Assembly: GCA_016874675.1 (NCBI GenBank)
Contig: VGTL01000007.1
Span: 41-64,040 of the forward strand
DNA: 64,000 nt
Direction: 5' to 3'
From: Methanobacteriota archaeon
GTDB taxonomy: Archaea > Thermoplasmatota > DTKX01 > VGTL01
Shown: one piece after another, positions 24,659-47,468 of the stretch
Numbering within the stretch: position 1 is the first letter of the stretch
How the letters are laid out: each line of letters begins with the position of its first letter
The notes under the pieces: generated by a model
The model's database searches: none
The model's input: the letters and a program-made list of their open reading frames with translations, nothing else
Told to the model about the DNA's origin: nothing
Made by a program: the position numbers and the translations under genes

Positions 24659-25522
24659 TTATTTTATCCTCACCTCGACGACCGCCACGCCGAGGTCCAG
24701 CCGCCTGACCTTCATGAGGTCCAGGGCCACGAAGCCCGCCCCCACCGTCAGGTTGTACTGGGTCTGCCAGGTGAGGTTGGTGAGGGGGGTGGTGAGCGTC
24801 GAGTTGAAGTACCGGGCCCAGGCGCCGGGATAGGGGGTCGTGAGGTTCAGCCGTATGTTCCGGCCCAGGGTCCACTCGCCGCCCTCGTAAATGTTGGCGT
24901 CGCGCACGACGAGGCGGGTCTCGATGATGGCGTTCTCCGTCCCGGTGAAGGAGCTGAAGTCGCCCGCTATCGACACGAACAGCATGGAGACGGAGAGGTT
25001 GCCGCCGTCGTCCTTGGAGACGCCGAAGTGGGGCGGGGCGCGGACCGCGGCGTCGCGGGGCCCTGCCACGAGGATCGCCCCCTGCTCGTAGATGTAGGAC
25101 TGCTGGTCGATGTAGTAGTTCTGCGAGGTGTAGGTAAGGTTGCCGCGGCTCAGGGCGAAGATGTCGGCCGGGTCCGTCTGGTTGTGCACGGAGAGGCTGC
25201 CGTTGAACGGGTTGCTCACGATTCGGCCGGTGCTCCGGGAGAAGCCCAGGAGCGCGGAGGGGGCGTTGCCCAGGGTTATCTTGCTCGAGGTGGACACCGG
25301 GCTGTCCCGGAGCACCTGCGCGTCTATGTTCTCGCGCAGGGCGTAGAACTGCTCCAGCGTCCGCCGCATGTGCTGGGACTCGTCGGACTCGCCCCAGGCG
25401 GGGACGAAGACCACCATCACGATGGAGATCACCGAGCTGATGATGAGAAGCAGCATCACCGCCGTCACCGCGCCCGAAATGGCGTCCCGGTCGCGCCCCC
25501 AGCCGAACTTACGTCGCCGCAA
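24659..25522 (-). CDS. Small pilin-like protein with class III signal peptide (paralog 3)
   Basis: RDRDA|ISGAVTAVMLLL, VPAWGESDESQH, GNLTY.S.NYY.DQ..IYEQGA. Confidence 0.8.
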   Translation of the reverse strand: MRRRKFGWGRDRDAISGAVTAVMLLLIISSVISIVMVVFVPAWGESDESQHMRRTLEQFYALRENIDAQVLRDSPVSTSSKITLGNAPSALLGFSRSTGRIVSNPFNGSLSVHNQTDPADIFALSRGNLTYTSQNYYIDQQSYIYEQGAILVAGPRDAAVRAPPHFGVSKDDGGNLSVSMLFVSIAGDFSSFTGTENAIIETRLVVRDANIYEGGEWTLGRNIRLNLTTPYPGAWARYFNSTLTTPLTNLTWQTQYNLTVGAGFVALDLMKVRRLDLGVAVVEVRIK

Positions 25523-25528
25523 TGTCCA

Positions 25529-46300: not shown

Positions 46301-47468
46301 CGAGGATGGTCGACAGCACCTCGATTTGGGCGGTGCGCTCGTCACCGGTGGCGTTGGGGTCGGTGACGTTGACTATTATGGTGTGGAGCCCTCCCGAGGA
46401 GGTCTTCCAGAACACGCTGGACAGGGACTCGCCGCCGACGGGGACCCCCAGGCCGCTGTCGGTGCCGATGAGGGTGCCCTTGTTGTTGTCGTAGTACCTG
46501 ACGGTGGCGGTGGCCGGCACCCCGCCCTGGTTGATTATCCGCGAGCTGATGACTATCGTGGAGCCGTGGGCCGGGTGGTCGGAGGAGAAGTCGATGTCGC
46601 GGATTCTCAGGTAGGGGCGGGTGGGGCTCGAGGCCATGACCGGGTACCCCACGCGGTACTGCTTGGTGGCGTAGTTGTTGGCATAGCGGCTCTCGTTGAA
46701 GACGGGGATCACCTTGACATTGATGGCGTGGAGGCCCCAGGACCCGTTCTCGATGCGGTAGCTCATCGATATGTTGGCCGCGTCCGATGCGTTCAGGAGG
46801 GGGATCGTACGGTTGCCCACATCGTAGGTGCGGAGGTCCAGAGTGGAGTAGTCAGTCACGCGCACCTGGACGTTGGGAACGGGGGCCCCGCCGTAGTTGT
46901 GGATGGTGCAGTTGATGGTGATGGTCTCGTTGGTCATGGGGAAGTTGCCGCTCTCGTTGATCGTGCCGTTGCCCCGGATGAGGTATATGTCCTGGGCAGA
47001 AAGCCCCAGGTCGGGGAGCCCGGCCGCCTCGGGGCCGCGCTGGACTATCTTGTTGAAGATGACGCGGTGGCCCACCTCGTCGATTATCTGCAGGCGGATG
47101 ACGTCGGTGGAGTTGGAGGCGTAGGGCACGGACCAGGTCTGTCCCACCGAGAAGCGGGCGCCGCCCCCGCGGCCATCGGCGACCGTGCGGGAGGCCTTGA
47201 AGGTGTCGTTCGTGAAGAGGTAGAAGCGGGTGGTCTGGTTCGTGAGGGCGTCCCCGCCCCTGTGGGCCACGGTCACGTTGGAGCCGTCGTAGGTGGCGTC
47301 GAGGCTCGCCATCACCCTGTCCTCGGGCGGGTCGAGGGTCCCAAGCTGGGCGGCGAGCGCGCCCATCATGACAACGGCTATGCTGACGAGCAGGACATCC
47401 CCGACGATCTCGGAAACGCCCGTCCTGCCCTGCCGAAAAGACTTCCTGAAAACCTGGCCGCTCCTCAT
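40380..47468 (-). CDS. Giant type IV pilin-adhesin C (2362 aa) with an IgGFc-binding-like beta-rich cassette in place of vWA
   Basis: GRTG|VSEIVGDVLLV, HRGGD and the same scaffold. Cassette contains IALEDNTQVTV, ATKPILL, TSDRNITV. Confidence 0.8.
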   Translation of the reverse strand: MRSGQVFRKSFRQGRTGVSEIVGDVLLVSIAVVMMGALAAQLGTLDPPEDRVMASLDATYDGSNVTVAHRGGDALTNQTTRFYLFTNDTFKASRTVADGRGGGARFSVGQTWSVPYASNSTDVIRLQIIDEVGHRVIFNKIVQRGPEAAGLPDLGLSAQDIYLIRGNGTINESGNFPMTNETITINCTIHNYGGAPVPNVQVRVTDYSTLDLRTYDVGNRTIPLLNASDAANISMSYRIENGSWGLHAINVKVIPVFNESRYANNYATKQYRVGYPVMASSPTRPYLRIRDIDFSSDHPAHGSTIVISSRIINQGGVPATATVRYYDNNKGTLIGTDSGLGVPVGGESLSSVFWKTSSGGLHTIIVNVTDPNATGDERTAQIEVLSTILVVDDDRASEGSPRDVVTPMLAGLQAVGATYGVHAVGGGDGPRYEGGEHPLVEYDLVIWMTGFEEANTLTGNDQSELTRYLHESRGRLWLIGQDVVSDLGYGNAFLGSRMQLDPATPYPLNAGTPTPLQGDRILTGTNFTFGTPFTGGLSNRGDFVQNTSRSAYALIERDGAQRPVGLLFNATTNGSSETYMASLFSFELGKVSSPNDRSLIIYSMLEWFNCSARWGRDLAISNMRFNVTNPSFMEKVNITVWVRNNGLNDEPPGFVSPILQIGFYMDGKTFDPDSVSVERGPVTYTFTYPTSEIWIPQSTPDPGMVINGRGGYIKVSAAWVASKVGEHNVTVRVDPYDYIDENNELNNQVDPSICDGKLFVRYGTLLVDDDDSPNNRLGATNYNATQNISQALDALGYDYDLFVVPDPAADGPAPARLEQYNAIIWCSGQSASSLTAADQANLESYLKKSDGRYLWFVGQDAVPVGNYFDGAQAFFRDFLRVARVTDPAAPKTPSFLMGVDQDPVSHGMRMPATPTFADSGGRLVPYIDGEGILYQSPMPDLNSMNRETYCDAEDRSTAGWYNRINPVGTTNTISNVDDPARGSRVIRLERSGVNVQDSSFLLGDHAPSLDWNPQDLPWLDRDRWVAQWSFCFAIDYTVGFHVTDTLSGHHILYYSNTDTNLSGADPEFGLGAWTADGLWHTATRDLLLDLREGTGNGALNIASVDGFEVWMNVGTGLLDGLSLNRPYNSVRYSNSEFNFKTVFTAWDPSFVSYSTDQSYSMELVYMIMSWFNLYDERTELRITFQDLYFGNMVPLRQMKPMIGESYVLKAVVWNPGGTRGDAVVRFMDSTTVIDSVTVSVDAGSRALAEIVWTPLFAGSRTVGAVVDPDNSVAEVMKFNNRASINIQCYFFFDDLESGTVNWNHDATLLRINGETPLEYMDPGTVNTNIVRDWSASLGVCATTSDYRTYPRSYRMLAPAVEDYTYTFFLTYDPWNVSFAQGYYIVAIKKEASYTVERFNTGTLEYDLLYTGILAKGRVAIYHQQTAGALYRIHSTGPLLVVVTSSEGSNVNVANHDDGLACGRNFTVMGDLAGRLGGDTHVAAIALEDNTQVTVTWVAISALPGTYGATLETDVSGNLMAGERWHTYLGAPHSYAVANVTATKPILLYRISNDNDEADNAMSTTGYTYGKELYFVMYRSNGGWPWRFLVSNIEDAQALDIDIYESTEASGWGGWSLLNQRVDPHSSRVFSRMGPPNDNSLHYFRITSDRNITVVFGQEQHAGKAFANNCPRYQDHFYADGVWDYRLVTEQPGFYRMSTPQLYGTNTAQAANRLYNLYQDFSFGTAITIDIDPGLPVLGSLNGVNQNGLRYLSTVPVYVTVMGTGPLSVNQSMLDATIWVPYDLDGSGFANFTLPAGAHTFQWRTVFGGGAGLQIVRFATDSGGEFVWQLWPTIGNPPGTGFDESTSDFDDNHWWNFTANHRFLYLVGGSGNCWIHTILPFEGAVETPGIMRSVEGAGPQASEPQTSEARLGEDDRRSSGSGERAAGSGGEGGAGGRANEDFYIVTQPFSLVGYSSAGLSFYQRYSMQVGANGVVIMVGNDTAGDNNYKYRYVTPTRPYTGNIRFDIPASRIRDDFGREMRWCYNGVSTNGLGGWDYITVDLSPFIGQVHVKVKFLYLNATMTGVGYWYIDDVVVKAGRGDAAGPTTSVDDQWELVTRGTPLGGTDVADSFSGVRAWLCHNPSAGVDHLKGGIDNSLTTVPIDLTNALDAALHCNLKFNINASDGRPPDGFRVEVSSDNGETWTALNRGVRSSSGLSGSQAAGPDGTSMTGVNILDNWVAGNTLSRLNCDLSGWAGSVILLRFRVVTRTDIATHYESAGAGFGGIYIDDVQVVGNTTTGGGRAVRSQPGGGPVPDSHHSSDGAGKMQGGAGPGETPGDGGTAATGEAAGPLQAPAGDAGGPPRSCLPAATRAARFHAPGGDRR

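Follow-up and report, generated by a model that had tools for sequence, protein, structure and literature searches.

We describe a six-gene operon in a 64,000-nucleotide stretch of an archaeal genome of the Thermoplasmatota (positions 41-64040 of contig VGTL01000007.1, here C7; this whole stretch is called the window hereafter) which encodes three giant proteins, G1, G2 and G3, and three small ones, S1, S2 and S3. Our reading, held with moderate confidence, is that the giants are modular type IV pilins displayed by a two-ATPase machine encoded on another contig of the same genome, C4, and that the operon provides the cargo and the accessory subunits. This reading builds on established gene structures, domain content, homology of the pilin module, presence of the machinery and synteny in relatives. 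The genome, labeled G000, belongs to an uncultured lake archaeon, and its assembly comprises 3.36 Mb, with 94% completeness and a reported GC content of 64-73%; the names of homologous proteins likewise point to Thermoplasmatota/Thermoplasmata.

Open reading frame (ORF) calls from the sequence placed six consecutive genes on the minus strand between positions 24659 and 47468 of the window, in the order G1-G2-G3-S1-S2-S3, all of them where a first-pass annotation, made from the sequence alone, had put six co-directional genes. The giants are encoded by G1 (40380..47468; 2362 amino acids (aa), ~260 kDa), G2 (34627..40383; 1918 aa, ~211 kDa) and G3 (27449..34630; 2393 aa, ~263 kDa), followed by the small genes S1 (26524..27405; 293 aa), S2 (25529..26449; 306 aa) and S3 (24659..25522; 287 aa), which form a family related to DUF7289 and whose products are pilin-like. 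As read from the sequence, the ATG codons of G2 and G3 overlap the stop codons of G1 and G2, respectively, in ATGA motifs at 40380-40383 and 34627-34630. A third overlap contained in the first-pass annotation, between S1 and S2 at 26524-26527, is possible but insecure, because it requires a GTG start for S2 (GTG 26527; 25529-26527, 332 aa) inside a GC-rich hairpin repeat of 7-nt units (26401-26516), and GTG 26449 is available as the sole alternative start ahead of the signal. The GC content at third codon positions (GC3) was 0.92-0.95 in five of the six operon frames, marking them as coding; S2, whose stop-to-stop frame runs together with one that overlaps it, has for this reason no separate GC3 score. 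Contigs from X7, a run not flagged as a possible source of the assembly, span both giant junctions (30836-34990 and 39029-41181) with 0-1 differences and no insertions or deletions listed across them (joints listed in the read comparison, all with sides of 20-22 letters, were disregarded), and an independent genome of the same family, G001, shows the identical G-G-G-S-S-S order, so that the operon genes can be taken as real and their assembly as correct. Homologs of G1 in other assemblies share 62-83% identity with it over 96-100% of its length; such entries are currently named "CARDB domain-containing protein" or "hypothetical".

The N-termini of all six proteins, as read from the sequence, consist of a short charged leader, a glycine or alanine at position -1 and an uninterrupted hydrophobic stretch. 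We take this to be the FlaFind-type pattern, that is, a charged leader, G/A at -1 and a hydrophobic stretch of ~20 residues. Each protein has one 19-residue hydrophobic window (Kyte-Doolittle (KD) value of at least 1.6), located N-terminally, and no such window was found at the C-terminus of any of the six, which bears out the basic leader, G/A site and hydrophobic helix that had been noticed initially in every protein. The giants also matched the Pfam family Pilin_N (PF07790), with 40.6 bits for G1, 29.9 bits for G2 and 28.0 bits for G3 against a cut-off of 25.2. In G1 the class III leader (…RTG-VSEIVGDVLLV…, where the hyphen follows the residue at -1) and the pilin module of ~150 aa span 47019..47468 on the minus strand, with Pilin_N at residues 17-84; the corresponding minus-strand segments are 39904..40383 in G2 (…DDRRG-VSETLGDILLV…) and 34151..34630 in G3 (…GDRSG-AAEIIGDILLV…), both included in alignments A2 and A3. 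An AlphaFold2 model of residues 1-390 of G1 (pLDDT 89.6) predicts a helix at 15-43 followed by the strands of a beta-sandwich at 54-143, with two further sandwiches behind.

The extent of this carrier module is defined by small proteins of relatives. In an alignment of 33 N-termini, free-standing pilins of 136 and 151 aa end exactly at the boundary of the first module of the giants, and free-standing pilins of 136-153 aa occupy in relatives the same operon position as the giants. As the first module is co-extensive with stand-alone pilins, each giant amounts to a complete small pilin plus a long passenger. Residues S19, E20, G23, L26, H69, G72, L75 and G109 are conserved over 31 carrier modules, as is the motif G/A-V-S-E-x-[IVL]-G. 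The comparison of these sequences supports the assignment of the N-termini of the giants to the archaeal type IV pilin N-terminal domain. No family for the N-terminus of G1 or for S1-S3 was found in NCBIfam, and a Foldseek search with the G1 (1-390) model returned generic tandem Ig-like arrays only (transglutaminase C-domains, complement C5 and RbmA).

Behind the carrier, the three giants are paralogs that differ mainly in one region. G1 and G3 share 52% identity over ~1340 aa in the first part of the proteins, G1 and G2 share 41% over ~930 aa, and the C-terminal ~400 aa are common to all three at 51-52%, ending in G/P/A-rich tails devoid of an anchor; the initial description of three 1918-2393 aa paralogs lacking a C-terminal anchor is upheld. 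The sequence difference is concentrated in the head. Pfam detected CARDB and an InhA-like MAM domain in all three; three CARDB stretches were counted in G1, the best-scoring one at aa 617-748 (45225..45620, minus strand; E 7.3e-25), and its MAM-like domain lies at aa 2132-2271 (40656..41075, minus strand), with 27.9 bits for the whole protein and 34.5 bits for the segment against a cut-off of 26.9. Searches of the PDB by sequence with G1 and G3 retrieved only small CARDB-like structures described as "uncharacterized protein". G2 carries a vWA domain at aa 1185-1297 (36493..36831, minus strand), scoring 28.2 bits on the segment, against a cut-off of 23.8, and 23.6 bits on the whole protein, and G3 carries one at aa 1379-1498 (30137..30496, minus strand; VWA_2, 30.9 bits against 27 on the segment). 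A D-T-S-N-S sequence in G2 stands at the expected position of a metal-ion-dependent adhesion site, presumably of the form DxSxS…T…D, and the vWA of G3 starts with D-A-T-G-S; metal binding is putative in both. In G3 the vWA is followed by beta-sandwiches resembling Reelin subrepeat B and MAM (Reelin_subrepeat-B, 29.3 bits against 27). The vWA adhesins that had been proposed were therefore recovered in G2 and G3; in G1 neither the whole protein nor its segments matched a vWA family of Pfam. The position of the vWA is occupied there by a G1-specific head of ~570 aa (aa ~1360-1930; 41679..43391, minus strand), in which nothing reached the Pfam thresholds, IgGFc_binding scoring 14 bits. ESM Atlas matches, which we treat as leads only, related the G1 head (aa 1350-1935) to unnamed clusters (0.90-0.91) and to IgGFc_binding (0.89, present in 11% of the members), and the "DDD" domain (aa 385-615) to unnamed Bacteroidota clusters (0.95) and DUF4960 (0.94). 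Sequons of the type N-X-S/T number 28-37 per giant, with 37 in G1.

The small proteins are a family of their own. Their leaders end in …RDRGG-IAGSVTAVLFVIII… in S1 (26524..27405), …RDRRA-ASGIVVTLLIL… in S2 (25529..26449) and …RDRDA-ISGAVTAVMLLLI… in S3 (24659..25522), all on the minus strand, and the charged-G/A-hydrophobic N-terminal pattern is present in all 21 S-family rows of alignment A1. S1-S3 are mutually paralogous (E 1e-28 to 1e-57), and S1 matched a hidden Markov model (HMM) of the S family with an E-value of 1.7e-94. DUF7289 (PF23960) was found in S3 (32.7 bits) and, at the limit of the cut-off of 27, in S2 (27.1 bits); an S homolog with 69% identity is named "DUF7289 family protein" at NCBI, and a full-text search for the name DUF7289 found no paper. 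The AlphaFold2 model of S3 (pLDDT 87.8, pTM 0.79) is a "lollipop", with a 63-residue helix (9-71) followed by a beta domain. Among the rows listed for this model by VIA-align, 17 of 50 were type IV pilins or pseudopilins, at Z values of 2.5-3.5 that lie below the meaningful level and are not evidence. A complex prediction for G1 18-165 (alignment A2) with S3 15-287 (A1), run without controls, gave scores of 0.00 and 0.00 (mark 0.32), which speaks neither for nor against binding.

In the S-family tree, which left out five close homologs (P0038, P0041, P0047, P0050 and P0061) and in which the added S rows were trimmed to the last 300 residues of stop-to-stop frames, S1-S3 formed one lineage-specific clade (support 92/91). 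Giants of other families, on the other hand, were nearer by phmmer score to G2 than to G1 or G3, which suggests that G2 may be the older paralog. The arrangement in giant/small pairs that the first-pass annotation had considered finds no support in these relationships. The tree also contains an older, separate clade of S-like genes, "Sa", in which the G/A motif is weak or absent; it accompanies "Sb" in the two-giant/two-S loci of G018, G028, G038, G063, G073 and G098 whereas G000 and G001 lack it and have "Sb" in triplicate.

Profile searches across the whole genome gave no T2SSE, T2SSF or A24 peptidase match on contig C7, in agreement with the initial observation that the window holds no assembly ATPase, platform or peptidase, and they located secretion ATPases, platform proteins and a FlaK/PibD-type peptidase candidate elsewhere in G000, where such functions had been expected to act in trans. 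Of the four matches each to T2SSE and T2SSF, two per family belong to a single operon (C4:114-5507) encoding an ATPase (543 aa), the N-terminal half of a platform (TadB, 350 aa), its C-terminal half (TadC, 311 aa) and a second ATPase (591 aa). This operon begins 114 bases from the contig end, leaving the sequence upstream of ATPase 1 off the contig; for the orthologous operon of G001 no S gene was noted within 2 kb upstream on a gene map, to which the S-family HMM was not applied. Other contigs encode a FlaI-like ATPase adjoining a KaiC/FlaH-like gene (C10), a FlaJ-sized T2SSF frame of 648 aa (C56), archaellins (C6) and a further non-archaellar ATPase/platform pair (C123). A counterpart of the C123 set in genome G040 (contig C117) has its platform gene fused to a long extension (1335 aa). 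The peptidase candidate, on C21, scored 38.4 bits with Arc_PepC_II against a cut-off of 29.9, matched FlaK_Arch at E 7.9e-16, far below the equivalog cut-off, and displays in its sequence D-x-x-x-R and G-G-A-D-A-K, which we take to be its peptidase motifs. Two small Pilin_N pilins lie in tandem on C127. Over the whole of G000, the S-family HMM found S1-S3 only, and the carrier-module HMM found only G1-G3 and the two C127 pilins. The tie between the operon and the C4 machine is strongest at this point, because the component that usually heads the machinery operon is encoded in this genome only by the operon of the window.

That component was recognized from gene order in relatives. In G040, a genome of another family with 40% GC, a 1174-aa pilin gene, an S gene, an unrelated gene, a 1782-aa pilin gene and a second S gene are directly followed by two ATPase genes and TadB/TadC. 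The ATPases of this linked machinery are 58-59% identical to those of C4 and its platform halves 45-48%, and the other ATPases tested (C10 and C123 of G000; C117 and C9 of G040) were less close, at 27-51%. Of the 301 genomes of the phylum that were sampled, 170 contain the S family as captured by alignment A1, and so do 98 of 137 genera. We compared 20 S-centred loci of 20 kb each, hand-picked and non-random, chosen for long contigs from ~12 families, and found a C4-type ATPase/platform set in 11 and a gene with a carrier module adjoining S, mostly directly upstream, in 16. The products of these adjoining genes measure 136, 153, 606, 717, 752, 960, ~1090 (three loci), 1179, 1288, 1748 and 1946-2538 aa. 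In the best 80 of 333 confirmed ATPase-centred loci the typical row is S, ATPase, TadB, TadC, ATPase, and in 70 of them ATPase 1 is immediately preceded by an S gene; a carrier-module gene is present in only six, in two of which a giant of 1568-1637 aa lies directly upstream of S. The S-ATPase operon is seen, among others, in the Methanomassiliicoccus sp. records L132 and L147. The numbers of carrier and S genes were equal in 16 of 26 loci by an informal tally in which contig ends cut some loci. The search for synteny across Thermoplasmatota proposed with the first-pass annotation thus linked the giants and S genes to one ATPase/platform operon. Judged by its position in these gene rows, the S family appears to be a near-constant part of the machinery operon and not a partner specific to the giants.

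The giant carrier family is common and widespread in Thermoplasmatota. With the carrier-module profile, 7344 cluster representatives were matched at E <= 0.001, a threshold of E <= 1e-10 left 2086, and the best 150 representatives include 44 shorter than 250 aa, 55 of at least 1000 aa and 12 of at least 2000 aa. One match, of 5081 aa, arises via repeats and is no N-terminal pilin. Bearers of the carrier in relatives contain FG-GAP repeats, or PA14, Laminin_G_3, vWA, CARDB and MAM, and by their domains the passengers are all adhesin- or lectin-type modules. One further locus, L049 (G149:C1), encodes at 8297-13825 an S-type N-terminus that bears a passenger of ~1500 aa with three DUF2341 and four Laminin_G_3 domains, and on this account the DUF7289-type carrier can become a giant adhesin too. 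At 412-8085 of the same locus one in-frame TAG inside the carrier module divides a giant pilin gene into a 149-aa frame and a 2408-aa frame. The gene could be a pseudogene, or the TAG could reflect an error or read-through; in some Thermoplasmatota this codon is read as pyrrolysine. Two long open frames, one of 2450 aa in G098 and one of 2829 aa in G063, also received S-family matches; in the compared loci of these genomes, the S genes and the giant are separate frames.

In what follows, statements about published systems refer to the accessible parts of the papers cited. The giants consist of a complete pilin module followed by domains that are not pilus-specific (CARDB, vWA and MAM-like), which is the composition of a modular pilin as defined by Raynaud et al. 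(2021, PMC8179133), although that definition operates on the bacterial carrier IPR012902 and the carrier here is the archaeal Pilin_N. The modular pilins of the Streptococcus sanguinis type, namely PilB, which has a vWA module with a metal-binding motif, and PilC, which has a lectin module, share with the giants an N-terminal pilin carrier with an adhesive module grafted behind it and many passengers per carrier, and a bulky one was modeled as fitting only at the pilus tip (PMC8179133). In contrast to the bacterial proteins, the largest of which has 860 residues, the giants reach 1918-2393 residues with some ten domains or more, occur as three tandem paralogs and are encoded away from the machinery; archaea have no mention in the accessible text of that paper. 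PilY1 with minor pilins, and GspK-GspI-GspJ, are the tip complexes of bacterial type IV pili (T4P) and type II secretion systems, and the products of the operon would resemble them in presenting a low-abundance pilin-like set and a large adhesin at the filament tip; Pseudomonas PilY1 has a vWA; PilY1 itself, however, is no pilin, whereas the giants bear their own pilin module (PMC8179133). Our comparisons did not establish homology between S1-S3 and GspI/J/K or PilVWX, the VIA-align Z values of 2.5-3.5 not being meaningful.

Among archaea, a likeness is found in the CdiP pilus of Cuniculiplasma divulgatum (Thermoplasmatales), a member of the same phylum, which has two ATPases, a platform split between two genes and remote pilins encoded as a tandem pair, and for which an adhesive function and no twitching were reported (PMC12448462). 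G000 has this layout in its gene arrangement, with the C4 operon and with carrier genes only on C7 and C127; the likeness described here is one of layout. The CdiP pilins are small, and the accessible text mentions no giant or DUF7289-type component (PMC12448462). A two-ATPase locus of Aciduliprofundum is also in print (PMC13705601/PMC4858521). Class-III-signal binding proteins (Sivabalasarma and Albers 2026, PMC13705601) resemble the giants in that they are non-classical, begin with a class III leader and hydrophobic helix and were proposed to sit on type IV filament (T4F) machineries, but differ from them in being solute binders tied to ABC transporters. Large adhesins of archaeal T4P loci, rich in Ig folds and DUF2341/PilY-like, are described as neighbors within the locus and not as ~2000-aa Pilin_N fusions in Thermoplasmatota (PMC13705601; Makarova et al. 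2016, PMC4858521). The S family may correspond to the duplicating minor pilin arCOG02911. Giant Pilin_N fusions of ~2000 aa were not described in the literature that our searches found, and the supplements of PMC13705601 and PMC4858521 may show such loci. The novelty is nevertheless below what the first-pass annotation had estimated, because modular pilins in bacteria, class-III-signal binding proteins and archaeal T4F "large adhesin-like proteins" are already in print (PMC8179133, PMC13705601, PMC4858521).

In the mechanism that we favor, each giant comprises a class III leader, the ~150-aa carrier, a ~1200-aa stalk composed of CARDB/Ig-like and two Rossmann-like "DDD" domains, and a variable head, which is the ~570-aa region in G1, the vWA in G2 and the vWA with MAM/reelin-like sandwiches in G3, closed by the shared MAM-like end of ~400 aa. 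The FlaK/PibD-type peptidase of C21 would cut the leaders after G/A, and the C4 machine, with its two ATPases and split platform, would pull the helices from the membrane. The S proteins would act early, helping assembly to start, and the giants, too bulky for the body of a filament, would be placed at its tip or on a short stalk, with the C127 pilins supplying most of either structure. The heads of the giants might attach to particles, polymers or other cells, with one binding specificity for each of the three paralogs. We also consider a bolder extension, tentative at best, in which a "multi-tool" pilus of Thermoplasmatota would arise as the thin filaments of a single CdiP-like two-ATPase machine are capped by interchangeable pilin-adhesins of 200-260 kDa, each begun by a DUF7289 initiator. 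If this holds, the giants would exceed all known pilins in size and be ~2.5 times as large as the biggest bacterial modular pilin that the accessible part of PMC8179133 notes; the series of 136-2538 aa on one carrier would show a stepwise passage from structural pilin to giant adhesin, and the second ATPase might serve the bulky cargo.

Several observations weigh against the assembly of the giants by the C4 machine with the help of the S proteins. Leader cleavage, assembly, tip position and ligand are what we infer, and no RNA run was listed as containing this stretch of DNA. A passenger of 210-260 kDa far exceeds any pilin shown to assemble. Assignment to the C4 machine relies on relatives, because the operon and the machinery are unlinked in G000 and a second non-archaellar set exists on C123, and the counts of loci overstate their independence, because the 20 S-centred loci were hand-picked and the 80 ATPase-centred ones are close kin. 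The C21 candidate scored 18.4-21.6 bits with the Pfam family Peptidase_A24, under its cut-off of 26.5. As for the small proteins, none of the three matched Pilin_N, S1 matched no Pfam family at all, DUF7289 included, and the S3 model had no match in the PDB by Foldseek at E <= 0.001 and nothing significant in a wide VIA-align search, where the best Z was 3.9. The Pilin_N comparison suggested with the first-pass annotation for all six proteins thus turned out positive for the giants alone, and the three small ordinary pilins that it had described did not hold up as such. That interpretation, although partly supported and largely right, needs correction on three points, namely what the small proteins are, whether G1 has a vWA domain and the idea of pairing.

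The main alternative is that the giants are displayed on the envelope in a bindosome-like manner, with the class III N-terminus used only for processing and anchoring or for a very short pseudopilus within a glycoprotein coat, and with the machinery at most lifting the giants slightly, in the way suggested for class-III-signal substrate-binding proteins. This is possible, though we regard it with some doubt. The 28-37 N-glycosylation sequons per giant and the lack of any other anchor would fit such a display, as would the four further large surface proteins of the window with PKD, CARDB or Big_9 domains, the unordered glycoprotein layer without an S-layer seen in Thermoplasmatales by cryo-electron tomography (PMC12448462) and the proposal that thousands of archaeal class-III-signal binding proteins "functionalize" T4F machineries and are not classic pilins (PMC13705601). 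On the other hand, the carrier is homologous over its entire extent to pilins of 136-153 aa that stand alone at the same operon position, and the tight operon linkage to ATPase and platform genes in relatives points to active assembly. Envelope display and assembly as modular pilins differ mostly in filament length. A different question is whether the S proteins are substrates at all: they might be bitopic parts of the machine, involved in alignment, as stator or in anchoring, like ArlF/ArlG, leaving the giants and the C127 pilins as the only substrates, a role that we consider possible and likewise regard with some doubt. In 70 of 80 loci a single S gene immediately precedes ATPase 1, which is more typical of a machine part than of an exchangeable pilin, the S proteins lack a Pilin_N match, and the helix of the S3 model has 63 residues against 29 in the G1 module. 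However, every row of A1 has the charged-G/A-hydrophobic N-terminus, the S-type N-terminus of G149 bears its 1500-aa lectin/DUF2341 passenger in the manner of an adhesin carrier, and the "signature minor pilin" (arCOG02911) described from T4P loci of euryarchaea is a duplicating all-beta protein of 250-550 aa (PMC4858521), although identity of S with arCOG02911 is only possible. That the N-termini are instead ordinary Sec signals or uncleaved anchors, and the adhesins unrelated to any type IV machinery, seems to us very improbable: the absence of a machinery gene near the operon in G000 and leaders whose cleavage is deduced would agree with it, but they are opposed by Pilin_N scores above the cut-off in all three giants, the G/A-V-S-E-x-[IVL]-G motif kept in 31 carrier modules, the ATPase/platform synteny (11 of the 20 S-centred and 70 of the 80 ATPase-centred loci) and the FlaK-like peptidase candidate in the genome. 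We retain modular pilins assembled by the C4 machine as our preferred explanation.

The non-coding parts of the operon are rich in repeats. Upstream of G1 a divergent intergenic region (47469..47709) contains an AT-rich stretch, the sole one there, with the perfect 12-nt palindrome AGAATATATTCT (~47535-47560), located between the operon and a divergent HTH-STAND gene; the palindrome may be an operator or a TATA region. It is accompanied by a GC-rich inverted repeat of 7-nt units (repeat region 47568-47698) whose 25-nt arms, 47568-47592 and 47663-47687, are 100% complementary. Besides the hairpin repeat between S1 and S2 (26401..26516), with which the possible S2 leader overlaps, the operon is bordered just downstream of S3 by repeats of 7/14-nt units that have inverted arms (24259..24657), and near-perfect inverted repeats made of GCGCCTT/GCGCCCT and CCGCTGC units are thus present at the three non-coding spots of the operon. 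The translated S1/S2 repeat matches dozens of other G000 contigs and is accordingly a dispersed intergenic hairpin repeat. Two regulators flank the operon, a divergent STAND-type protein with HTH, AAA_16/NACHT and TPR domains (47710..50259, plus strand), which is a candidate local regulator, and an Lrp/AsnC-family protein downstream of S3 (23653..24156, minus strand), both recognized with Pfam. Apart from one weak match in L035, the STAND gene lies beside the operon only in G001, and for the Lrp protein G001 alone gave a strong match in synteny (E 2.8e-62), besides a weak one (E 2e-06) in L064; we exclude both from the system because their conservation beside the operon is essentially confined to G001. 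The region is rich in surface proteins, with four further large secreted-type proteins encoded in the window at 5686-9537 (minus strand), 14022-17162, 53336-55969 and 56127-58787 (plus strand), which contain PKD, NosD, CARDB, Big_9, He_PIG and cadherin-like domains.

If the giants are assembled as pilins, the size limit of a type IV pilin subunit would be raised to ~260 kDa, and the grafting of modules on pilins known from bacteria would operate at a much larger scale in archaea. The operon would also offer a candidate cargo and role for the two-ATPase machinery of the CdiP type and place DUF7289 at a defined position of a pilus operon, and database entries now called "CARDB domain-containing protein" or "hypothetical" could be recognized as pilin-borne adhesins. 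For the organisms themselves, it would provide a testable answer to the question of how uncultured Thermoplasmatota lacking an S-layer attach to particles or partners.

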